From Dehalococcoidia bacterium (GTDB lineage Bacteria > Chloroflexota > Dehalococcoidia > JAUSIH01): a stretch of DNA of 64,000 nucleotides. How positions within the stretch are numbered: position 1 is the first letter of the stretch; each line of letters opens with the position of its first letter. The position numbers and the translations under genes were made by a program. The notes under the pieces are model-generated. The model was not told where the DNA came from and searched no databases. It was given only the letters and a program-made list of their open reading frames with translations. Below are positions 2,209 to 12,774 of the stretch, piece by piece. The stretch is from positions 1,370-65,369 of the forward strand of contig JAUSIH010000046.1 of the NCBI GenBank assembly GCA_030648205.1. The letters are read 5' to 3'.

Positions 2209-2465
2209 TGTCTCGTCCCTGAAATCTGTGTACAAATTGTCATTGCGAGGACTCCGGCTTGCCGGAGGACGAAGCAATCTGGAGGGGGGTGTACTCCGCA
2301 ACCAGATTGCCACGCCCCGATTTCGTCGGTGCTCGCAATGACATTAGCAACGAACTTCGGGGACGCCACACAGCGGGCTTGCCCGGAAAGCCGGTTGCTG
2401 CTACCGTGTGGCTGCCGGAACTCCAAGCCCTCCGCGCAGTCGCAGAGGGCGCATAAGGGGGTGTC

Positions 2466-3482
2466 ATGCGTCCTCAGTTCGGCATCGTCTTTACGCCCGC
2501 ACCTCACGCGGACCTTGTGCGCTGGGCCACGCTCGCCGAGGAGGGCGGCTTCGAGCGGCTGGGCATAGCGGACAGCCCGTCGCTGTACCGGGACGCGTAC
2601 GCGCTGATGGCCGTCATCCTGGCCAAAACGACCCGCATCCACGTCGGGCCGCGCGTGACGAACCCCGTGCTCGTCCACCCCGGCGTCATGGCGAGCACGC
2701 TGGCCTCGCTGTCAGAGCTGTCTGGAGGCCGCGTGTACATGGGCATAGGCACGGGCCACAGCGCGCTCCTGAACGTGGGGTTGAAGCCCGCCAGCCTGGG
2801 CACGCTCCGGAGCTTTGTCCTGGCGGTGCGCTCGCTCCTGACCACGGGCGAGGCGGAATGGCAGGGCAAACATGCGCGGATGACCTGGCGGGCGGACCAG
2901 CCCGTGCCCATCTACGTGGCCGCGGGCGGGCCGAAGTCGCTGGAGATGGCGGGCGAGATCGGGGACGGGGTGATCATCGGCAACGGCATGACGCCTGAGG
3001 TCGTCGCGCACGACATGGCGTGCATCGAGCGCGGCGCGCGGACGTCGGGGCGCGCGCTGCGTGACCTGCACTTGCAGTGGCTGATGGCGGCGTGCGTCGC
3101 CGACGACCCGGAGCAGGCCGGCCGCGAGGCGCGGGCGCAGATGTGCTCCAACGCCCACAGCGTGTTCCAGCACGGGATCGAGGGACAGTTCGTGCCCGCG
3201 CCATTGAAAGAGCGCGTCCAGGCGCTCTCGGATGGGTACATGGTCACCGAGCACGCACGCCCGGGGGAGTCCGCGCACAACGCTCAGCTTGTGGACGAGC
3301 TGGGGCTGCGCGAGTACCTGATAGACCGGTTTGGAATCGTCGGCTCGCCGGAGCGGTGCGTGGAGCGCATCAAGGAGTTGCAGCACCGGGGAATCAACGC
3401 GTTCTGGATGAGCGTGCACACCACGGAGAAGGAGAGGGTTATCCGGCTTCTGTCGGAGAAGGTGCTGCCGCACTTCCTGTAG
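2466..3482 (+). CDS. LLM-class (luciferase-like) F420/flavin-dependent oxidoreductase, paralog 1
   Basis: 338-aa TIM-barrel LLM signature (GIADSPSLYRD, GIGTGHSA, GGPKSLEMAGEIGDGVIIG). This is the same family as the genes at 6603-7664 and 14329-15369. Confidence 0.8.
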   Translation: MRPQFGIVFTPAPHADLVRWATLAEEGGFERLGIADSPSLYRDAYALMAVILAKTTRIHVGPRVTNPVLVHPGVMASTLASLSELSGGRVYMGIGTGHSALLNVGLKPASLGTLRSFVLAVRSLLTTGEAEWQGKHARMTWRADQPVPIYVAAGGPKSLEMAGEIGDGVIIGNGMTPEVVAHDMACIERGARTSGRALRDLHLQWLMAACVADDPEQAGREARAQMCSNAHSVFQHGIEGQFVPAPLKERVQALSDGYMVTEHARPGESAHNAQLVDELGLREYLIDRFGIVGSPERCVERIKELQHRGINAFWMSVHTTEKERVIRLLSEKVLPHFL

Positions 3483-3610
3483 TCAGCAGTCCTGCCTGCA
3501 TTGCTTCCGCCGCCACGGCAGGGGTGAACGTTCCAGGACCCTCACCCAGCTTTGCACAGAAAGTGCCGTCTGCACAAAAAGGCAGCAGGCTGAACAAAAA
3601 GTCCAGTCTT

Positions 3611-5308
3611 TCAAATCTTGCTAGGCCAAGTCTCGACAGCAAGTTTTGCTAGGCGATTCTGTCGCTCTTTAATTTCCTTAGCGCCCCAAGATGCGCATTG
3701 GGCTGCCTCAATCGTCAGGGTAAACGTAGAATCTTGAAGTACGGGTCCCTTTTCCTTGTACGGGCTATTCCCGATCATAGAGTTTTTCTTCGCTTGCAAA
3801 ATGACCATATTCCCAAGCCGTTTGTAATAGGCGGCGGCGGTTTCACTATCAATATCCGGCCATTCGTTTCCAGGATGTTCAGGCAGAATATGTTCAAGGT
3901 TGATTGCCTGCTCCTCATCTTGCGGAACCCACTCTGGTTCGGGTTCCTTTTTCAGATATAGTTCCATCGCACGTAGGTAGTACCGCGCCAAGTAGACGTG
4001 GGACACTCTCGCTTCCGAAAAGGCAGTCTCAAAGAGCGCATCTGTAGGAACGACATCTGACATTTTAGCCGCCAGTTCCTTCGCCGTCTTGATTTTCCTG
4101 GTTCCAACATCTTGGGCGCGAAGCGCATAGTTCCGGTCAAGAAGTCCACCACGTCCACCAACAATCAAAAATCGTACTGACCAATAGACAAAGAGTCGGA
4201 ACGCATCCTGTGCCTCTTTAATTGAGAAGTAGCGAGCGACAGCGAACATGAGTGGGCGAATCTGCTCTACGCGAAGGTCACGATTGATGGTAGAAATATG
4301 TTTCCGCGTTCTGGTTCCGTATTGGTTCCATTTGGTATGGTCAGAGTTGTACAACGCGGCGTAGTCATTTGCCGCCTCTGCAACCTCACTGAGAAAAGTA
4401 AGCGCGCGGCTCTGGCTATCCACTGTCTGCCGAACCTTGTCAAAGACCTCTTGGCCTCTAGTTGGACCAGTCTTGGTAATCATGAAATGATGCAAGAATA
4501 TGACTGTAACATCATCTTGCCCTAGCGATTCAAGGACACCCACCATCTTTGCCCAATGCTGTTGAGCCTCATTTATGCGATCCCCTGCGTAACTCAACAG
4601 GTGGTTCTTCAGCAAGTCAGCTTGGGATGCTTTGAGACCACGGTCGTTGAGGGTTTCAAACATCATGAAAGCGTTCAAATGATCGGGTACACGGAGCACG
4701 ATGACTTGCGCTCCGGTGCGCACGAACTTAACCCATTCGAGCAACCGCGTTGTTTTCGCGGAGGGAGTATAAGGGTCCAAAATTTTTTGAATGTGCTTGG
4801 CAGCTATTTCACTCGCCAACTTGATACGCTTGTGGGATTCCTTCATGGGGGCAACCCCTCGTACAGGGTCATCAGGATTCGCCAGAATGAAATTCGAGAA
4901 GAACTCGTTATCGTCAACGTTCAAGCGAAGCTTAGGGACAATTGCCGTAGTGTTGATGTCCGTTGTCTTCAGGAAGTCATTCTCAATTGATTGGGCACGG
5001 GCAGCATCCTTATTCCAGTGGAAGTAGTCCCGAATGGCTGCCAAGAGGATCGTAGATGTCGCAAGTCGTTGTTGACCATCCGAAACCTCTGGAACCTCTC
5101 CCGCTCCCTTAGTTAGAACGATGGTTCCGAGAAAATAGCTGGCCTTGTTGTTAGCTATCGCATTCGCAAAGTCTTGGAGAAGGTCAGTGACATGATCTTC
5201 CTCCCATGAGTACTCTCGCTGGTTCAACGGAACGGCAAGGCGGTTGTGGGCCAAGACCTCTCCAATCCCCTTATACTCAAATCCAATTTCTTCCGTCGTA
5301 ATATGCAT
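3611..5308 (-). CDS. DUF262 (ParB-like nuclease, DGQQR motif) / DUF1524 (His-Me finger) fusion: GmrSD-family type IV (modification-dependent) restriction endonuclease-like defence protein
   Basis: The N-terminal region has NQREYSW and DGQQRL motifs. The C-terminal region has EHILP...GNMVIL, the DUF1524 His-Me finger. The gene sits in a ~2.3-kb segment of clearly lower GC than its flanks. Confidence 0.8.
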   Translation of the reverse strand: MHITTEEIGFEYKGIGEVLAHNRLAVPLNQREYSWEEDHVTDLLQDFANAIANNKASYFLGTIVLTKGAGEVPEVSDGQQRLATSTILLAAIRDYFHWNKDAARAQSIENDFLKTTDINTTAIVPKLRLNVDDNEFFSNFILANPDDPVRGVAPMKESHKRIKLASEIAAKHIQKILDPYTPSAKTTRLLEWVKFVRTGAQVIVLRVPDHLNAFMMFETLNDRGLKASQADLLKNHLLSYAGDRINEAQQHWAKMVGVLESLGQDDVTVIFLHHFMITKTGPTRGQEVFDKVRQTVDSQSRALTFLSEVAEAANDYAALYNSDHTKWNQYGTRTRKHISTINRDLRVEQIRPLMFAVARYFSIKEAQDAFRLFVYWSVRFLIVGGRGGLLDRNYALRAQDVGTRKIKTAKELAAKMSDVVPTDALFETAFSEARVSHVYLARYYLRAMELYLKKEPEPEWVPQDEEQAINLEHILPEHPGNEWPDIDSETAAAYYKRLGNMVILQAKKNSMIGNSPYKEKGPVLQDSTFTLTIEAAQCASWGAKEIKERQNRLAKLAVETWPSKI

Positions 5309-5856
5309 GGTGACCTACCTTCAGCGTTTTAGGAACGCGATGGGAAGGGGGGCTTCCTCTAATTCCCGCACAGCAGTGCGTCGCAGGCGTTCCCTAATCC
5401 ACGTTGCTAAGGGTATTCTGGCGAGAGCAGCAGCCTTCTTGAACGCTTGCCTTTCGGCCTCCTCGAGTCTTATCTAAAGCACTTTGTCGAGGGTTGTCGA
5501 TTTTGGCGGCCTGCCAACTCGTTTGTTCATTGTCCTGTTTGTACTACTAAAAACATTACATGTCAAGCGCAACTATTGAGATATGTGGTTTTTTGTCCGT
5601 ACAATAAGTCCATCAGAAGAAAGCGGCTCGATGGGGAGGAGCGACCATTCAACGAGATTAAAGGCTTGGTCAAGAGTCAGCTCCCTATTTTCCAGAATGG
5701 GGCTGTAGACGGGTATTAGGGCTAACCTCTCCTCAAATTAGGACACGACCTATTTTTGTGCAAAGCTGATACTCCCAGACCCCCGCCAGAGAGGGGCGAA
5801 GCCCTCTCTGGACTCCCTCGCGCCAAGGTACCCCGTGACGAAACACTACGAACGCC

Positions 5857-6558
5857 CTATCCGGTGAACAAGATGCGCTGGCAGTTGGGGCACTGGACGA
5901 TCTCGTCGCCGCGGGCGGCCCTGCGGTAGTCGCTCTCCGGCAGCGAGATGCGGCAGCCCATGCACATGCGGGAGGCGATGCGCGCCACGGCCAGGCCTTG
6001 CCGCAGGGGGCGCACACGCTCGTACAGGGCCAGGGCGGGCGCCGGCGGTTGGGCCGCGGCGGCCTTGCGGCGGGAGGTCAGCCCGGCTATCTCCGTCTGG
6101 AGCCGCGCCTGCTCTGTCCTGAGGCCGTCCTGTTCCACACGCCTCGCGTGCTCCGCGGCCTCCATCTCGGCGGCCCGCGACTTCACGGCTCCCTGGGCCT
6201 GCTCGACGGTGTCCATGAGGGCGAGCAGCTTCCCGTCGGTTCCGCTCCGCTTGGCCTTGAGACGCTCCAGTTCTTCCTCCATGTTCATCAACTCTTTGGG
6301 GCTTTTCACTGAGCCGCCGTAGAGCTTCTTATCAAGCGTCCTGACCTTCTCGTCGGCGTCCTGGATGTCGGCCTCCACGCTGCGCTGCTCGCGTTGAAGG
6401 CGAGTCTGCTCCTCTTTGGCTGTGGCCAAAGCCTGGCGGGCGGCGCGCAGCGCCTCCGTTTCGCCCATCCGGGCCTCGACGGCGACGAGCGCCGCCTTCT
6501 CTCTGTCCAGCGCCAGGTCTATTTCCTGGAGCTGATAAAGCTGCTCCGCAACGGTCAT
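5857..6558 (-). CDS. zinc-ribbon domain protein (COG1579-like coiled-coil protein with a C-terminal C4 zinc ribbon)
   Basis: Long coiled-coil N-terminus followed by CMGCRISLPESDYRRAARGDEIVQCPNCQRILF. Confidence 0.65.
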   Translation of the reverse strand: MTVAEQLYQLQEIDLALDREKAALVAVEARMGETEALRAARQALATAKEEQTRLQREQRSVEADIQDADEKVRTLDKKLYGGSVKSPKELMNMEEELERLKAKRSGTDGKLLALMDTVEQAQGAVKSRAAEMEAAEHARRVEQDGLRTEQARLQTEIAGLTSRRKAAAAQPPAPALALYERVRPLRQGLAVARIASRMCMGCRISLPESDYRRAARGDEIVQCPNCQRILFTG

Positions 6559-6602
6559 GAGTCCATTCCTTTGTGCAGACGTAATCCAGGCGGCCCGACG
6601 TC

Positions 6603-7664
6603 CTATGTGCGGGCGGCCCGGGCGGTGGCCCTGGGCGGCTCCTTGATGTAGGGCAGCACCTTCTCCCCGATGCCCTTGATGAAGCCCAGCGGGTCATGGG
6701 AGTAGATGCCAAAGTGGATCTTCTTGACGCCCATGTTGACCAGGCCCTGTATCTTCTCGATGAAGTACTCGGGCGGGCCGATGATGGTGAAGCGGTCGGC
6801 CAGATAGTCGCGCAGGCCCAACTCGTCCACCAGTTCCGCGTTGCGCCTGTTGGCGCCCAGGCTCTCGTGTTCATGGAAGACGTACTGCTGCTGGAGCTTG
6901 AGGATGCGCGGCTTCACCTCCTCCGGGATCATCTTGTTCTCCAGAGTGAAGCGGAAGGCGTGATTGGCGCTGGCGGCGAGGGTCATGCGGGACTCCAGCA
7001 GGCCGTCCTCGCGCCGATTGCACAGGTTCGCCTTGACGAACCACCAGATGTCCAGGTCCTCCAGCTTGCGCCCGGCCTCCTCCGCGCCCTCCCGGATATG
7101 CCGCAGGGAGTCGGCGACGACCTCCGGCAGAATGCCCGTGCCCACCGCCACGCCGTCGGCGATGCGTCCGGCCAGGCGGAGCGCCTTCGGCCCCTCGCCG
7201 GTGACGTGGATGGGCACCGGGCGCTTGGCCCACGTGAGGCGGCATGTCCGGCCCTGCCACGTGCCCTCGCCCTTGCGGTAGAGGTCCTGCATGCAGCGCA
7301 CGTACTCTTCCAGGACGGCCAGAGTGGAGCCTTTGTACCCCAGGTTATACACGGCGCTGTCGCCCGTGGAGATGGCGAAGTAGGCCCGCCCGCCGGACAG
7401 CTCGTCAATGCTCGCCATGCCGCTGGCGGACACGGCGGGGTGCCGGGTCAGCGGGTTGCTGACGAGCGGCCCGATGAGCACCTTCTTTGTGTTGACCGCC
7501 ATGAGGGTCAGGGCCACGTACAGTTCCCGCGCCAGGGACTGGCTGTCCGCCGCGCCCACGCGGGTGAAGCCGTTGGCCTCCGCCAACTGGGCGCGCTGGA
7601 TGATGATGTCGGGGCTTTGGACGCTGACGCCGTGGGCCATGCAACCGAGCTGGACTGCTGGCAT
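6603..7664 (-). CDS. LLM-class F420/flavin-dependent oxidoreductase, paralog 2
   Basis: 353-aa LLM TIM-barrel signature (GAADSQSLARELYV, AISTGDSAV, GEGPKALRLAGRIADGVAVG). Confidence 0.8.
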   Translation of the reverse strand: MPAVQLGCMAHGVSVQSPDIIIQRAQLAEANGFTRVGAADSQSLARELYVALTLMAVNTKKVLIGPLVSNPLTRHPAVSASGMASIDELSGGRAYFAISTGDSAVYNLGYKGSTLAVLEEYVRCMQDLYRKGEGTWQGRTCRLTWAKRPVPIHVTGEGPKALRLAGRIADGVAVGTGILPEVVADSLRHIREGAEEAGRKLEDLDIWWFVKANLCNRREDGLLESRMTLAASANHAFRFTLENKMIPEEVKPRILKLQQQYVFHEHESLGANRRNAELVDELGLRDYLADRFTIIGPPEYFIEKIQGLVNMGVKKIHFGIYSHDPLGFIKGIGEKVLPYIKEPPRATARAART

Positions 7665-7687
7665 GATGTTCCTCCTTCACACAGTCG

Positions 7688-8590
7688 TTAGGACCGCAGG
7701 CGGGGGTCGAGAATATCCCGCAGCCCGTCGCCCAGCATATTGAAGGCGAAAACCGTCAGGCTGATGGCTATGCCGGGGAAGATGGCGAGCCAGGGGGCCT
7801 GAGTCACGAACTGGCCTCCCTCGCCGGCCAGCATGCTGCCCCAACTGGGGGCCGGAGGCGGAATACCCAGGCCCAGGACGCTCAACGACGCCTCCACCAG
7901 GATGGCGTGGGGGAGCTCGACGCTGGCGATGACGATGAATGGGGCCAGGGTCTGCGGCAGCACGTGGCGGAAGACGATGCGCCAGTCGTCGGCGCCGATG
8001 GCCCGTGCAGCGTCCACAAAGGCCAGGCTGCGTACGGCGATGGTGGCGGCGCGGGCCACGCGCGCTGTGCGCGGTGTCTGCACAATGGCGATGGCGAGGA
8101 TGATGTTCTCAACGCTGGGGCCCAGGGCCGCCACCAGCATGAGGCCCAGGATGAGGGTGGGGAACGCCATCAGCGCGTCCATGATCCGTTGGATGGCCAC
8201 GTCTAGCTTTCCGCCGAAGTAGCCGCTGAGGATGCCGATGATCCCTCCCGCCGTCTGTCCCAGCGCCACCGCCAGAATGCCCACGTACAGAGATATGCGC
8301 GTGCCGTAAATGACGCGGCTCATGACATCGCGTCCCAGGTGGTCGGTGCCCCAGTAGTAGGTCAGGCCGGGAGGGACGAGGCGGGCATCGTAGTGGAGAG
8401 CCAGCGGGTTGTAGGGGGAGATGAGCGAGGCGAAGATGGCGGTCAGCCCCAGCACGACGACGATGGCCGCGCCCGCGGCGGCCAGAGGTTTCGTCCGGGC
8501 GAACCGCCGCGCGAAGGCCGCGGCCTGCCCGGCGCGGGACGGCCTGTAGGCGGGGCTGGCTTGTGTTGTGAATGCCTCTTGCGCTGGCAT
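7688..8590 (-). CDS. ABC transporter permease (peptide/nickel family, DppC/OppC-like)
   Basis: Six predicted TM segments and the EAA-like loop SLAFVDAARAIGADDWRIVFRHVLP. The C-terminus has the GDGLRDILDPRLR motif. Confidence 0.85.
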   Translation of the reverse strand: MPAQEAFTTQASPAYRPSRAGQAAAFARRFARTKPLAAAGAAIVVVLGLTAIFASLISPYNPLALHYDARLVPPGLTYYWGTDHLGRDVMSRVIYGTRISLYVGILAVALGQTAGGIIGILSGYFGGKLDVAIQRIMDALMAFPTLILGLMLVAALGPSVENIILAIAIVQTPRTARVARAATIAVRSLAFVDAARAIGADDWRIVFRHVLPQTLAPFIVIASVELPHAILVEASLSVLGLGIPPPAPSWGSMLAGEGGQFVTQAPWLAIFPGIAISLTVFAFNMLGDGLRDILDPRLRS

Positions 8591-8601
8591 ACGTCACTCC
8601 G

Positions 8602-9564
8602 CTAGCGCAGGTGGACGCGCGGGTCTATGTAGCCGTACAGGATGTCCACGGCCAGGTTTATCACGATGATGATGGCGGCGAACACGACGATGATGTTTTG
8701 GACCAGCGGAAAGTCCTTGGCGGAGATGGCCTGGACAAGCGCCCGGCCAATCCCCGGCACGGAGAATATCTGCTCCATGATGACCGTGCCCCCGAGCAGC
8801 ACGGCGTATTGGAGGCCTACGACGGTGACCACGGGCAGCAGCGCGTTGCGGATGGCGTGCCGCGCCACCACCAATGTCTCGGGCAGGCCCTTGGCCCAGG
8901 CGGTGCGCACGTAGTCCTGCCGGAGCACCTCCAGCATCTGGGAGCGGGTCATGCGGCTGACGGTGGCGGTGAAGTAGTAGGCCAGCGCCAGCACGGGCCA
9001 GATGACTTGCTGGGCGTTGGTCAGCGGGTCCTGGACCAGATCGGCGTAGGCCAGGGGAGGAAGCCAGTGGAACCCGATGGACAGGACCAGGATGACGAGC
9101 GTGCCAGACCAGAAGGTGGGCATGGCCAGTCCGCCGATGCTGATGATCCGCGCGAGATAGTCAATCCACGTGTCCTGCCGGATGGCCGATATCACGCCCA
9201 GGGGAACGGCGACCAGGATAGCTATCAGCATGGTGAAAGTGGCCAGCTCAATAGTCACGGGCAGGCGTTGGGTGATTTCCTCCAGCACAGGCGTGTTGAA
9301 ACGCAGTGACGTGCCCCAGTCCAGACGCACAAGCCCCCACACCCAGTCGAAGTATTGCTTGGGCAGAGGGTCGTTCAGGCCGAGCTGTTTCCGGAGGGCG
9401 TCAATCTGCTCCTGCGGAACGGAGGCCGGGTTGTCGCTCAGGCCGGCCAGGACGATGCGCGCCACGTCTCCGGGCAGGACGCGCATGACCGCGAAGATGA
9501 TGAGGGAGACCAGGACGAGGGTCAAAACTCCGCTCAGGAGGCGTGTAATAACGTATCTATGCAT
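8602..9564 (-). CDS. ABC transporter permease (peptide/nickel family, DppB/OppB-like)
   Basis: The N-terminus is MHRYVITRLLSGVLTLVLVSLIIFAVMRVLPGD. The EAA region is YVRTAWAKGLPE and the C-terminus is YGYIDPRV. Confidence 0.85.
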   Translation of the reverse strand: MHRYVITRLLSGVLTLVLVSLIIFAVMRVLPGDVARIVLAGLSDNPASVPQEQIDALRKQLGLNDPLPKQYFDWVWGLVRLDWGTSLRFNTPVLEEITQRLPVTIELATFTMLIAILVAVPLGVISAIRQDTWIDYLARIISIGGLAMPTFWSGTLVILVLSIGFHWLPPLAYADLVQDPLTNAQQVIWPVLALAYYFTATVSRMTRSQMLEVLRQDYVRTAWAKGLPETLVVARHAIRNALLPVVTVVGLQYAVLLGGTVIMEQIFSVPGIGRALVQAISAKDFPLVQNIIVVFAAIIIVINLAVDILYGYIDPRVHLR

Positions 9565-9716
9565 GGACTAATCACCATCGGACCGCACGTGGAGAGGGGA
9601 GGTCAGAACCTCTCGTCCCCGTGTGCTTTTGTCCAGCAGCCTGTAACGGGCCGGACGGCGTGAGGCTGGAGCTGGCCTGCGCGCGATGTCCTGCACAGGC
9701 CAGTTCCAGAAGCATC

Positions 9717-11456
9717 TTACTTGGCAATCCAGAGGGTATCGTGCTGGAGGTTGTTATAGATGCTGGTCAGCGGCTGGTAGCCCTGGACGCTTGTCCGCAG
9801 AGCGCCCTGGTACGAGCCCCAGGCCAGCACGTTGTTGTACCCGTTGTTGATGAGGAAGTCCTGGATCTCCTTGAGCTTCTTGGAACGGGCCGCGAAGTCC
9901 AGCGCCAGAGCGGCCTGTTCGTTGATCATCTGGTCCAGCTTGGGGTCGTTGGTGGCCGTCGTGTTCTCCGACGGGTCGCCCGTGGAGAAATAGCTACCCA
10001 GGATGACGGACGGGTCCTTCGGGAAGGGGACCTGCCGCATCACCTGGCCCTGGAACTTGCGGTTGAACGCGGCGTCCAGGAACGTGGCGTCGTCCATCGT
10101 CTTGAGTTCGATCTTGACGCCGATCTTAGCCAACTGGTCCTGGACGAAGAGGGCGCTGTCGCGGTAGCCAGGTCCCGGCCTGTAGATGATGCTGAACGAA
10201 AGGTTGGACTGGCCCTCCTGGGCCAGGAGCTTCTTGGCCTCGTCTATGTCCTGCGCCTTGTCCTTGCGGTAGCCCGCGAACTTGCTCAGCTCGTCCACCG
10301 TGTAGCCGCCCAGGTCGGGCGGAATCGCCCCGACAGCCTGACCGGACCCGGCCAGGACGAGCTGGTTGAAGACGTTGCGGTCAACGGCCATATACAGGGC
10401 CTTGCGCACGTTCACGTTATTGAACGGCGCAACCTGAGCGTTCACCGAGAAGAACTCATAGTTCTGGTTGAGGTAGCGGAACGCGCGGGTGCCGGACGTT
10501 TTGTTCAGTTCATCCTGGTCCGTCAGGTTCATATAGACCGGGGCTGCGATATCCGCCTGGCCGGTCTTCATTGCCGCTTTGCCGGACGCCCGGTCGGGAA
10601 CGATGTAGTAGGTGACGCCGTCCACGTAGGGCTTGCCCGGCATGTAGTAGTCCGGGTTGCGCACCCACTCCATGCTCACGTCAGTCCGGTAGGACTTGAA
10701 CTTGAACGGGCCGGTGCCCACCACGTTCGTCCGGAAGTCCTTTTTCGCCTCCATAATCTGGCGGGGCGAGATGAAGGCGCGGCCTCCCGCCAGAGCCGAC
10801 AGGATGGACGGGTCAATCTGCTTCAGCGTCATGACCACGGTGCTGTCGTCGGGCGCCTGAATGCTCTTGACCGAGCCCTTGAGTTGCGTGGACAGTGACG
10901 GGGACTTGTCCTGCAAGAGCGTGAGGCCGTAGGCGGCGTCCTGCGCCGTAAATGGCATGCCGTCATGCCATTTGACGCCCTTGCGTATCTTGAACGTATA
11001 GACCGTTCCGTTTTGGCTAATCGTCCAGCCTTCGGCCAGGTCGCCTATGAGTTCGCCGGCCTTGTCAGGGTTTTCCCGCACCATTGTGCCGTATCCCAGC
11101 GACATGGGCGCGATCGCGGTCATGGACCGGACCATGTAAGGCTCCCATCTTTCAGGGGTGGCCCAGATGAGGGCCTTCAGCGTCCCGCCGCGCTGTATGC
11201 CGGTCGTCGCCGTCGGTATTGGGGTTGGCACGGCGGTCGGCGTGGGCGCGCCGACGGCGGGCCGCGGGGTCGCGGTCGCGGCGGCAGGCGGTGGAGTGGC
11301 GGGCGCCGCGGTGGGCTGCGCTGCGGGAGGAGGCGGCGCGGGCTGCGCGGCGGGGGCGCAACTCGCGGCGAGGAGGGCCACCGCCATTGTGGCCGGGAGC
11401 GCCCATCCCATTCGATGTTTGAGACCGCTGCGGGTGGTCCTGTTTACGAGTTCCAT
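9717..11456 (-). CDS. ABC transporter substrate-binding lipoprotein (family 5, peptide/nickel) with a Pro/Ala/Thr-rich N-terminal linker
   Basis: It has a signal peptide plus lipobox (LLAASCAP) and a PAT-rich low-complexity linker, followed by a ~500-aa SBP_bac_5-like body. It lies upstream of the two permeases on the same strand. Confidence 0.85.
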   Translation of the reverse strand: MELVNRTTRSGLKHRMGWALPATMAVALLAASCAPAAQPAPPPPAAQPTAAPATPPPAAATATPRPAVGAPTPTAVPTPIPTATTGIQRGGTLKALIWATPERWEPYMVRSMTAIAPMSLGYGTMVRENPDKAGELIGDLAEGWTISQNGTVYTFKIRKGVKWHDGMPFTAQDAAYGLTLLQDKSPSLSTQLKGSVKSIQAPDDSTVVMTLKQIDPSILSALAGGRAFISPRQIMEAKKDFRTNVVGTGPFKFKSYRTDVSMEWVRNPDYYMPGKPYVDGVTYYIVPDRASGKAAMKTGQADIAAPVYMNLTDQDELNKTSGTRAFRYLNQNYEFFSVNAQVAPFNNVNVRKALYMAVDRNVFNQLVLAGSGQAVGAIPPDLGGYTVDELSKFAGYRKDKAQDIDEAKKLLAQEGQSNLSFSIIYRPGPGYRDSALFVQDQLAKIGVKIELKTMDDATFLDAAFNRKFQGQVMRQVPFPKDPSVILGSYFSTGDPSENTTATNDPKLDQMINEQAALALDFAARSKKLKEIQDFLINNGYNNVLAWGSYQGALRTSVQGYQPLTSIYNNLQHDTLWIAK

Positions 11457-11562
11457 TGCGTTCCTTTCATGCCCTCAACCAGGTGCGAGGCCAGGGGGCC
11501 TTCAACTAAATGAACAGAGAAGGGTCTGTAAGAAAGGCCCTGGGCCGCTCCTAACGTCTCGC

Positions 11563-12774
11563 TTACGTTATTTTCGTCGGCTTGTCCACGGTGTGCAGCT
11601 TGCGCTCCGGCTCGTTGCCGAAGATAAGGACGTTGGACACCTGCGGAGAGCCGCCCAGGGTGTGGGCGAGTCCACGGGTCACGTTCTTCAGTTGCCGGGG
11701 GCCGCACTTGCCTTGGAGCTGCTTGTAAATCTCGTAGGTCGTGCGCAGGCCCGTGGCGCCGATGGGGTGGCCGAAGGACTTGAGGCCGCCATCGGTGTTA
11801 ATCGGCAGCTCGCCCTCCAGGGTGAACGTGCCCGCCCTGACGTCCTCAGGCGCCTTGCCCCGCGGGGAAAAGCCCAGGTCCTCGTAGATGATCATTTCGG
11901 TGATAGTGAAGCAGTCGTGGACGCTGGCCAGGCTCAGCTCCTTGCGTGGGTTCTTGATGCCCGCCTGTTCGAAGGCCTGCTTGCCGGATTCCACGGTGGC
12001 GCGGACGCTCAGGTAGTCGAACCCGGGGCGCTGCATGGGCAGCATGGCGTCGGCGGAGGCCCCGATGCCCTTGATGTAGACAGGGTCGGCGCGGAAGTTC
12101 TTGGCCAGGTCCGCGCGACAGACGATGGCGGCGGCGGCGCCGTCGGTCACGCCGCAGCAGTCGAAGAGGCCCAGGGGCCAGGAGATGATGGGCGCGTTCA
12201 TGACCTGCTCCTCGGTCACCTCGCGCCGCAGGTGCGCCTTGGGGTGCATGGCGCCGTTGTGGTGGTTCTTGACGGATATCTTCGCCAGGATGCGCTTGCC
12301 CTCCTCGCCGCTCAGACCGTAGTGATGGAAGTAGCGGGTGGCGAGCATGGAGAAGTAGCCGGGCGCCGTCTGGCGGGCCTGATAGACGGGGTGGGTGCCC
12401 CGGCCGACGCCCAGGCCCCCGAAGCCGGTGTCCTTCAGCTTCTCGAAGCCCAGGGCGAGCACTACGTCATAGGCCCCCGCGGCCACGGCGTAGGCGGCGG
12501 CGCGCAGGGCTTCATGCCCCGTGGAGCACCAGTTCTCCACGCGGGTGATGGGGATGTTCGACAGCTTCAGCGGATCGGCGAGGAGCACGCCTGCCTCACC
12601 GCTGCGCAGCGTGCCGACCCAGGCGGCCTGGATATCGCCGGGGTCTATGCCCGCGTCCTCGTAGGCCTCGTAGGCCGCCTCCACTATCATGTCCTCGGGG
12701 CTCTTGTCCCAGAGCTCGCCGAAGGTCGTGCAGCCCATTCCTATGATGGCGACCTTGTCCTTGATGCTCTCCAT
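11563..12774 (-). CDS. thiolase-like protein (SCP-x / archaeal-type acetyl-CoA acetyltransferase family)
   Basis: KVAIIGMGCTTFGE (active-site Cys), HNGAMHPKAHL and GHPIGATG motifs. The start was chosen at MESIKDKVAIIG, which abuts the upstream gene. Confidence 0.8.
   Translation of the reverse strand: MESIKDKVAIIGMGCTTFGELWDKSPEDMIVEAAYEAYEDAGIDPGDIQAAWVGTLRSGEAGVLLADPLKLSNIPITRVENWCSTGHEALRAAAYAVAAGAYDVVLALGFEKLKDTGFGGLGVGRGTHPVYQARQTAPGYFSMLATRYFHHYGLSGEEGKRILAKISVKNHHNGAMHPKAHLRREVTEEQVMNAPIISWPLGLFDCCGVTDGAAAAIVCRADLAKNFRADPVYIKGIGASADAMLPMQRPGFDYLSVRATVESGKQAFEQAGIKNPRKELSLASVHDCFTITEMIIYEDLGFSPRGKAPEDVRAGTFTLEGELPINTDGGLKSFGHPIGATGLRTTYEIYKQLQGKCGPRQLKNVTRGLAHTLGGSPQVSNVLIFGNEPERKLHTVDKPTKIT

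Follow-up and report, generated by a model that had tools for sequence, protein, structure and literature searches.

We analysed a 64,000-nucleotide stretch of a Dehalococcoidia bacterium (hereafter the window; GenBank assembly GCA_030648205.1, contig JAUSIH010000046.1, positions 1,370 to 65,369 of the forward strand), in which a low-GC segment carries a nuclease gene. The segment, at window positions 3547-5768, is most probably a non-autonomous, transposase-less remnant of a transporter insertion sequence (tIS) with an intact HEC-06-type nuclease and a broken, putative ribbon-helix-helix (RHH) regulator. Insertion sequence (IS) elements with passenger genes are a recognised class, the tIS (PMC7986276). 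The original prediction for this DNA, made from the letters without database searches, had proposed a defence islet; we read the segment instead as a discrete transposable-element remnant with IS5-like terminal inverted repeats. Retrieved loci and contigs are labelled by L-numbers (L001, L002 and so on), and the coordinates of the features are collected in Table 1.

Foreign insertion with an intact nuclease and a broken regulator

The insert comprises 2,222 bp with a GC content of 0.492, compared with 0.643 for the whole window. The sliding profile gave values of 0.47-0.52 in every 300-nt interval between 3601 and 5700 and of 0.60-0.73 in both flanks, and the nuclease gene and the RHH pseudogene have GC contents at third codon positions (GC3) of 0.53 and 0.56, respectively, versus 0.86-0.93 for four flanking host genes. 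The profile and the GC3 contrast bear out the GC drop noticed in the original prediction; the segment is real, but the edges then assigned to it (3480 and 5740) were wrong and lie at 3547 and 5768, or at 3527 on the left if 20 extra nucleotides are counted in. The neighbours encode an arsenite methyltransferase (arsM; NF008823, 312 bits, over the cut-off), an LLM oxidoreductase of the F420 type and a CT398/Zn-ribbon protein, in agreement with the gene assignments previously made for the interrupted neighbourhood.

The empty site was detected in four contigs of a sister lineage (L004-L007), which represent four different samples, one labelled groundwater metagenome, and were reached via LLM protein homologues and their contigs; a scan of genome contigs with the LLM protein found no relative. 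In all four, the LLM and Zn-ribbon genes are separated by 247 bp of intergenic DNA without an insert, and the gene order (arsM-(MFS)-LLM, 247 bp, Zn-ribbon-LLM-permease) preserves the synteny on both sides. The LLM protein is 94% identical in the sister lineage and the DNA 87-93% identical. A blastn comparison with a sister contig aligned window positions 2453-3526 at 93% and 5857-12000 at 88% and left 3527-5856 without a counterpart; when the alignment was read by eye, the homology restarted at 5769. The foreign segment is an insertion into the Dehalococcoidia genome. The horizontal acquisition into a native neighbourhood that had been predicted is supported by the empty site in the four contigs together with the foreign GC and GC3, and the comparison of synteny proposed with it shows the segment to be absent from these contigs. 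None of the relatives examined has this gene at this locus with native GC; what was found is the empty site. Both junctions of the insert are covered by L001, a separate Logan assembly of 4,726 bp (run SRR13727527), which is identical to the window over 2,501 compared bases (window 3400-5900).

The longest open reading frame (ORF) of the segment, which contains no other long ORF, encodes a protein in which a helical linker joins a DUF262 NTPase domain at the N-terminus to a DUF1524 His-Me finger at the C-terminus. Pfam detected GmrSD_N at residues 17-238 (1.5e-27) and GmrSD_C at residues 422-555 (1.6e-21). All residues invariant in an alignment of 29 sequences (homologues 61-79% identical) are kept, among them D77, G78, Q79, Q80, R81, E472, H473, N500, N509 and N514, so both the DGQQR motif (residues 77-81) and the EH motif (472-473) are intact. 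These domains and motifs confirm the DUF262-DUF1524, GmrSD-like identity given in the original prediction. The PADLOC HEC-06 model PDLC04157 aligned residues 5-562 with profile positions 4-556 of 558 (4e-172, 571.7 bits), while the SspE models covered only the first ~90-110 N-terminal residues at no more than 68 bits. The proposed kinship with GmrSD, SspE and BrxU was thus right as far as the GmrSD-like type is concerned, while PADLOC gives HEC-06 as the precise family, and not GmrSD proper, BrxU or SspE. PADLOC models labelled 'Orf5', a label not traced to a described system, also match the nuclease over its full length (best 446 bits).

The AlphaFold model of the nuclease has a pLDDT of 83.7. 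Searched against the PDB (E <= 0.001), it retrieved only DndI, SspE and BrxU chains, with DndI 9jfl on top (TM 0.64/0.61, E 2e-17), followed by SspE and then by BrxU; 9jfl was also the best PDB match by sequence (2e-15). Because Pfam, PADLOC, the motifs and the fold agree, the assignment of the nuclease as a full-length member of the HEC-06 family is well supported. Its length and domain order are those of the HEC-06 proteins in PADLOC (PDLC04154-04157), and DGQQR and EH(I/L)xP have the same residue numbers with an offset of one. HEC-06 is a validated single-gene defence, in which the Q79A, R80A, E471A and H472A substitutions abolish defence (Payne et al., bioRxiv 10.1101/2024.01.29.577857). 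It blocks T4, and its distant homologue HEC-06Bact protects against T-even phages whose cytosine is modified and not against T4-GT7 (PMC12366544); protection by both was measured in E. coli. By analogy with these experiments on two other HEC-06 members, we infer that the window nuclease may likewise be modification-dependent.

HEC-06 has been described as a lone gene embedded in Hma systems, whereas the window gene is the cargo of an IS remnant behind a dead RHH gene. The combination of a DUF262 NTPase with a DUF1524 His-Me finger is shared with GmrSD (E. coli CT596) and BrxU, and the fold of BrxU (7p9k) was matched at E 4.6e-4, but the relationship to BrxU is only distant (TM 0.35 for the whole chain). 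HEC-06 and BrxU have 23.7% identity at 11% alignment coverage, and the BrxU RLFDS motif was reported to be absent from HEC-06 (10.1101/2024.01.29.577857).

The nuclease had been taken for the only gene, with ~420 bp of non-coding DNA upstream that might hold a promoter or a small regulator. Only the latter guess proved correct: this DNA holds a 69-codon RHH frame, here a pseudogene, and two promoter sites. The minus-strand translation of 5309-5740 reads MNKRVGRPPKSTTLDKVL, a stop, IRLEEAERQAFKKAAALARIPLATWIRERLRRTAVRELEEAPLPIAFLKR and a second stop. An in-frame TAG at RHH codon 19 (5474-5476) truncates the protein ahead of its predicted DNA-binding strand, and the same TAG is present in the independent assembly L001. 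L002, the closest homologue with flanking DNA retrieved (nuclease 77% identical in amino acids), has GAG at this codon and an intact 80-aa RHH protein upstream of the nuclease, which aligns with the window frame. The window frame additionally shows G38R and K27R at nearly invariant positions, as would be expected for a decaying gene. In L015, a Gammaproteobacteria metagenome-assembled genome (MAG) with a nuclease 73% identical, the RHH frame (986-1180) is degenerate as well and only its C-terminal 41 residues align, so RHH decay beside an intact nuclease gene has occurred more than once.

Homologues of the RHH gene were detected directly upstream of the nuclease, on the same strand, in 39 of the 82 nuclease-seeded loci, at a distance of -57 to +14 nt. 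The 82 loci come from more than ten bacterial phyla and Bathyarchaeia, with nuclease identities of 41-77%. In 81 of them (82 loci: L002, L003, L015-L094) the GC content of the nuclease is below that of the flanks, whatever the GC of the host, and the nuclease family looks foreign almost everywhere. An apparent RHH-nuclease fusion in L021 was rejected, as a stop codon separates both genes. Among 30 aligned RHH members, Pfam matched NikA-like in 29 (best 1.2e-7), DUF6290 in 21 and TacA1 in 11, all under the gathering scores; sub-threshold matches to the antitoxin families RelB and BrnA were also obtained, and the PDB profile matches (NikA and DUF1778) were weak (E 0.15-0.22).

Element ends, promoters and intact relatives

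The 16-nt terminal inverted repeat, CAGCTTTGCACA(G/A)AAA, has just two copies in the window, and both stand exactly at the edges of the foreign DNA, which are the points where homology with the empty site breaks off. L032, L122, L176 and L002 have ends of the same type, (G/A)GCTTTGCA(A)CA.., also written (G/A)GCTTTGCACA, and in L122 and L176 these adjoin SWIM/DDE transposases. The reverse complement of window 3547-3582 is 91% identical over 34 nt to the L002 end at 6396-6428, which comprises the terminal copy and its subterminal repeat. Two subterminal repeats next to the cargo-side end resemble the inner part of the terminal repeat and, judged by this resemblance, are probably transposase-binding sites. 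The idea of one flanking repeat common to all nuclease loci was rejected, the window repeat being specific to the SWIM/DDE subgroup.

A gene that diverges from the operator-like palindrome O1 in many homologous loci encodes a transposase of one of three types: an IS1-like DDE protein of ~274 aa, an IS1595 transposase, or a 422-aa protein with a SWIM zinc finger and DDE_Tnp_1 (IS5-like), which remains under the NCBIfam IS5 cut-off (93 bits vs 140). A divergent transposase was found in 21 of 36 nuclease loci with RHH, in 1 of 43 without RHH and in 39 of 57 RHH-seeded loci. L032 is a complete SWIM/DDE element of 3,389 bp with the repeat GGCTTTGCAACAGAAC, the 9-bp duplication GTAGCCAGG, the 422-aa transposase, RHH and nuclease; the window element is ~1.2 kb shorter, a gap near the size of the transposase gene. 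L021 is a complete IS1-like element of 3,162 bp (repeat GGTAGTGTCTCAGTTTGAA, duplication GGAGGGTA), and the IS1-like elements L021, L041 and L063, in which the cargo is the same, show perfect repeats of 18-19 nt and duplications of 8 bp; the ends of the IS1-like carriers are of the type GGTAGTG...

L002 contains the window end type twice, with a SWIM/DDE transposase upstream of RHH (tblastn 4e-81). As a separate observation, positions 2992-6429 of L002 hold the nuclease gene, then an internal copy of the IS end and four ORFs, including a 557-aa N6_N4 methyltransferase/NA-iREase1 protein, and are closed by the subterminal repeat and the second terminal repeat; this region may be a larger tIS with several cargo genes.

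The window element resembles tIS of the IS5, IS1 and IS1595 families in that terminal inverted repeats bracket the passengers and in having complete relatives with a transposase and 8-9-bp duplications. It differs from them in that the window copy lacks both transposase and target duplication and that its relatives encode a transposase with an additional SWIM zinc finger at the N-terminus. Within the IS5 family, IS903 generates 9-bp duplications and has ends that start with GGCTTTG. Four SWIM/DDE transposases used as tblastn queries (E <= 1e-3) gave no match anywhere in the window. The small ORF at the transposase end was considered as the lost transposase N-terminus and rejected: it gave no significant tblastn match, and in a comparison with a profile built from the N-termini of five SWIM transposases its score was reached by 630 of 2,000 shuffles.

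The RHH upstream regions of unrelated organisms have a common architecture, consisting of O1 (TTGTACCC-N-GGGTACA), back-to-back -35 boxes (GTCAAG..TTGAC) and a second palindrome, O2, whose consensus GGTACAAT includes the -10 box, with the ATG 6-7 nt further. On the opposite strand O1 supplies a mirror-image promoter with its spacer and -10 box, and elsewhere the transposase ATG adjoins O1. The half-sites of O1 and O2 vary between loci and co-vary within a locus. Among 87 non-redundant regions, the forward promoter was detected in 49, the reverse promoter in 41 and both in 29, with corresponding numbers of 0.25, 2.6 and 0 in shuffles; a 7-nt-arm palindrome score separated real regions from shuffles only moderately, and the promoter-pattern test was clearer. 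Of 62 loci, 39 have 6 nt and 14 have 7 nt between the -10 box and the ATG; because this gap leaves no space for a ribosome-binding site, the operon mRNA would be leaderless. In the window, the plus-strand promoter is the only sigma-70-like match of the consensus scan (10/12 positions) and would have driven the lost transposase gene.

In its way of working only, this arrangement may be compared with restriction-modification C proteins and CopG/Arc/Mnt RHH repressors, where a small DNA-binding protein stands first in the operon. Palindromic operators over the own promoter and a very short distance from the -10 box to the ATG, as read here, would be further features shared with C proteins and autoregulated repressors. 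Leaderless C-gene transcripts have been reported for PvuII. C proteins are helix-turn-helix proteins, unlike the RHH regulator of the window, and the window element has no methyltransferase.

An RHH-nuclease pair with 48-51% identity was also observed in the Bathyarchaeia MAGs L038, L040 and L043, where AT-rich palindromes (GTATATT..GATATAC) replace the bacterial promoter consensus upstream. The archaeal pairs and their palindromes suggest an inter-domain transfer with local adaptation.

RHH-seeded loci were collected in a reverse search with a narrower alignment (A4), since A3 is too variable for the collection scan. The nuclease lies downstream of RHH in 39 of the 74 loci with enough downstream DNA. 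As the other 35 have different partners (a ~50-aa basic protein, a 266-aa protein, a Schlafen/AlbA_2-HATPase_c_4 protein, a NYN nuclease, ParA or a DUF433 protein), the RHH family is not nuclease-specific.

Table 1. Features of the insert and its target site in the window (positions of the 64-kb stretch)
Feature	Position	Strand	Details
Extra nucleotides between the end of sister homology and the element end (20 nt)	3527-3546		imperfect direct repeat, 13/19, of 5769-5787
Terminal inverted repeat, cargo side	3547-3562		CAGCTTTGCACAGAAA; 16 nt, 94% complementary to 5753-5768
Two subterminal repeats	3565-3581 and 3585-3601		like inner part of terminal repeat; direct repeat D8
HEC-06-type GmrSD-like nuclease, 565 aa	3611-5308	-	Pfam, PADLOC, motifs, AlphaFold model
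Spacer, RHH stop to nuclease start (12 nt)	5309-5320	-	AGGTAGGTCACC; Shine-Dalgarno-like (AGGTAGG); read from sequence
RHH regulator pseudogene, 69 codons	5321-5530	-	translation
Putative promoter of RHH-nuclease operon	5538-5566	-	-35 TTGACA 5561-5566, 17-nt spacer, -10 TACAAA 5538-5543, 7 nt to ATG
Operator-like palindrome O2	5540-5560		spans spacer and -10 box; read from sequence
Putative mirror-image divergent promoter	5576-5605	+	TTGAGA, 18 nt, TACAAT; only hit of consensus scan
Operator-like palindrome O1	5582-5604		right half degraded
Unrecognisable DNA in place of 1.27-kb transposase gene (~147 bp)	5606-5752		includes 36-codon ORF fragment 5612-5719 (+)
Terminal inverted repeat, transposase side	5753-5768		TTTTTGTGCAAAGCTG
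Host target region	5769-5811	.	aligns with empty site in L004-L007
Perfect 11-bp-stem hairpin	5786-5811		CCAGAGAGGGGCGAAGCCCTCTCTGG; between convergent LLM and Zn-ribbon genes; terminator-like

Proposed history and alternative readings

The intact relatives, of 3.2-3.4 kb, are built from a terminal repeat, a DDE transposase gene on one strand and back-to-back mirror promoters with palindromic operators, followed on the other strand by RHH, the HEC-06-type nuclease, the subterminal repeats and the second inverted repeat. We suggest that an IS5-like element of this kind (SWIM + DDE_Tnp_1) entered between the convergent LLM and Zn-ribbon genes after the split of this Dehalococcoidia lineage from the sister lineage, and that later the transposase gene was lost and the RHH gene gained its nonsense codon. 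In an intact element, an RHH dimer would bind O1 and O2 and repress its own operon as well as the transposase promoter; a copy that has just arrived would therefore produce a burst of transposase and nuclease before both are kept low. A leaderless transcript and a consensus promoter would make these genes easier to express in many hosts. In the present genome the nuclease, which has its own Shine-Dalgarno-like site, would be transcribed constitutively and free of repression, provided that the weakened promoter is still active. Hydrolysis of NTP by the DUF262 domain would act as the sensor or switch that controls the His-Me finger, and the enzyme, by analogy with HEC-06, would cut invading phage DNA, probably at modified bases. 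The closest fold being that of DndI, a phosphorothioate sensor, there is a small possibility that the target logic differs from that of GmrSD.

Several points weigh against reading the segment as a decayed tIS. A 9-bp target duplication is missing. Read in gene orientation, one end is preceded by CTGGGAGTAT and the other followed by GGTGAGGGT, two sequences that do not match; the element is flanked instead by an imperfect, unexplained direct repeat of 19-20 nt, of which the sister lineage has a single copy. The DNA at 5606-5752 has no similarity to SWIM/DDE, IS1-like or IS1595 transposases, and the window holds no transposase of these types elsewhere, so loss of the transposase gene by deletion is presumed, and the element could have moved as a short derivative. 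One indel and two or three substitutions separate the window repeat from the L032 repeat, and the end type is defined by only five loci. The window -10 box, TACAAA, is off the consensus in its last base and the right half of O1 is off as well; both operators look degraded, and the window promoter may no longer work. Regulation by the RHH family and activity of the nuclease are predicted from sequence and analogy.

The RHH protein and the nuclease could instead form a type II toxin-antitoxin-like pair, in which RHH, through its P-I-x-F-L tail, binds the nuclease directly and so neutralises it, and also represses the operon. Such a pair would fit the sub-threshold RHH matches to TacA1 (11 of 30 members), RelB and BrnA, the conserved C-terminal tail after the RHH core and the tight coupling or overlap of the two genes. 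We consider it unlikely, since RHH is a pseudogene here beside a nuclease with all invariant residues and is missing from 43 of the 82 homologous loci, and an antitoxin is thus not retained with the intact toxin; moreover, HEC-06 works as a single gene in E. coli (10.1101/2024.01.29.577857), and the same RHH family precedes unrelated partners, for example ParA and the 50-aa basic protein.

It is improbable, in our view, that the segment is a generic defence islet, that is, a lone GmrSD-like gene brought in by recombination or left by a phage or plasmid, with the repeat arising by chance and the upstream ORF meaningless. The rarity of comparable repeats would agree with chance, as a flanking inverted repeat of similar score within 800 nt was found in only 3 of ~80 other nuclease loci, with unrelated sequences, and none of 93 other loci contains the exact 12-mer; its two copies in the window were equalled by 8 of 100 shuffles, and a target duplication was not found. 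However, the repeats lie exactly at the breakpoints of the empty site, and, with 2 errors allowed, the same end stands beside SWIM/DDE transposases in L032, L122 and L176 and occurs twice in L002 with the same subterminal repeat. In 39 of the 82 loci, an intact homologue of the upstream ORF stands at the same position.

A nuclease of the DndI/SspE kind, a phosphorothioate sensor that needs the dnd/ssp genes of the host and attacks unmodified DNA, is very improbable. The window protein has the same domain order as the DndI/SspE nickases (PDB 9jfl, 6jiv, 7drr), and DndI provides the closest solved fold (9jfl, TM 0.64, E 2e-17), ahead of SspE, and the best match by sequence. DndI couples with IscS-DndBCDE (PMC11662687), whereas neither dnd nor ssp partners are present in the element or in the adjacent genes (arsM, LLM, Zn-ribbon). 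The sequence identity is only 15-17% (17% to DndI), the SspE models reach at most 68 bits at the N-terminus against 572 bits over the full length for HEC-06, and the homologues are solitary IS cargo in more than ten phyla, which does not suit dependence on a host modification.

An assembly chimera, to which the sharp compositional breaks typical of mis-joins and the origin of the sequence from a Dehalococcoidia MAG might point, is hardly credible, because the independent assembly L001 is identical across both junctions and the host sequence runs on in perfect synteny to the left and right. The MAG origin is seen from a NuoF-like protein encoded in the window, which has 100% identity to an NCBI MAG protein.

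Wider pattern, other cargo and the host site

The window element itself, a HEC-06 nuclease in a decayed transporter IS, belongs to known kinds. The wider pattern, in which one RHH/promoter module occurs with cargo in three IS families, in many phyla and in Bathyarchaeia, may be new; a description of HEC-06/GmrSD genes with an RHH partner as IS cargo was not found in the literature searched. We tentatively suggest, as a possibility somewhat less likely than not, that RHH and the operator-bearing, near-leaderless mirror promoters form a portable 'cargo expression module' in at least three unrelated IS families (IS1-like, IS1595 and IS5-like SWIM/DDE), which would tie the expression of transposase and cargo to the arrival in a naive cell and carry single-gene defence nucleases (HEC-06, NYN, Schlafen-like and others) across phyla into Bathyarchaeia. 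If this is true, the window holds a decayed copy of the module in which the defence gene is the only survivor.

For the present genome the significance is modest: the tIS reading explains by which route and at which site a foreign nuclease arrived, the regulator and the vehicle having decayed since. More generally, small IS elements appear to be the vehicles in which the single-gene type IV restriction enzymes of the HEC-06 family spread as passengers; complete IS copies with duplications were found in four genomes, and the promoter/regulator unit is self-contained and looks built for very different hosts. This would offer a testable route for a rapid and phylogenetically wide spread of defence genes without phages, plasmids or large islands. 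Matches to the nuclease in a plasmid collection were limited to 16 records, all below 60% identity (best 40%), and in a viral collection to 12 contigs, and neither plasmids nor phages look like its main carrier. The 'non-coding' DNA beside such genes is worth reading for small regulators and IS ends.

Other genes were observed at the cargo position. A ~50-aa basic protein (MIKPKYPKRADLSQ...), without a Pfam match, stands behind RHH instead of the nuclease in L116, L117, L120, L123-L125, L130, L135, L139, L141, L144, L149, L154, L157 and L159, and most of these loci have an IS1-like transposase upstream. The cargo position in L110-L114, L173/L174, L171, L122 and L150 is held by a 266-aa protein of no Pfam family (with an IS1595 transposase), a Schlafen/AlbA_2 + HATPase_c_4 + MarR protein, a NYN-domain protein, ParA and a DUF433/HTH_66 protein.

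On the host side, the terminator-like hairpin lies 17 nt away from the insertion point of the element; it occurs once in the window and is imperfectly kept in the sister lineage. A search of window 3300-6000 against Rfam (E <= 1) found no RNA family. In the sister lineage a gene for a 402-aa MFS transporter is located between arsM and LLM, and the window has no MFS gene there (2195-2465). Window 2194-2371 matches L004 415-595 in inverted orientation at 81%, ~8 kb away in the sister contig, and this inverted match and the missing MFS gene look like a second local rearrangement beside the insertion.

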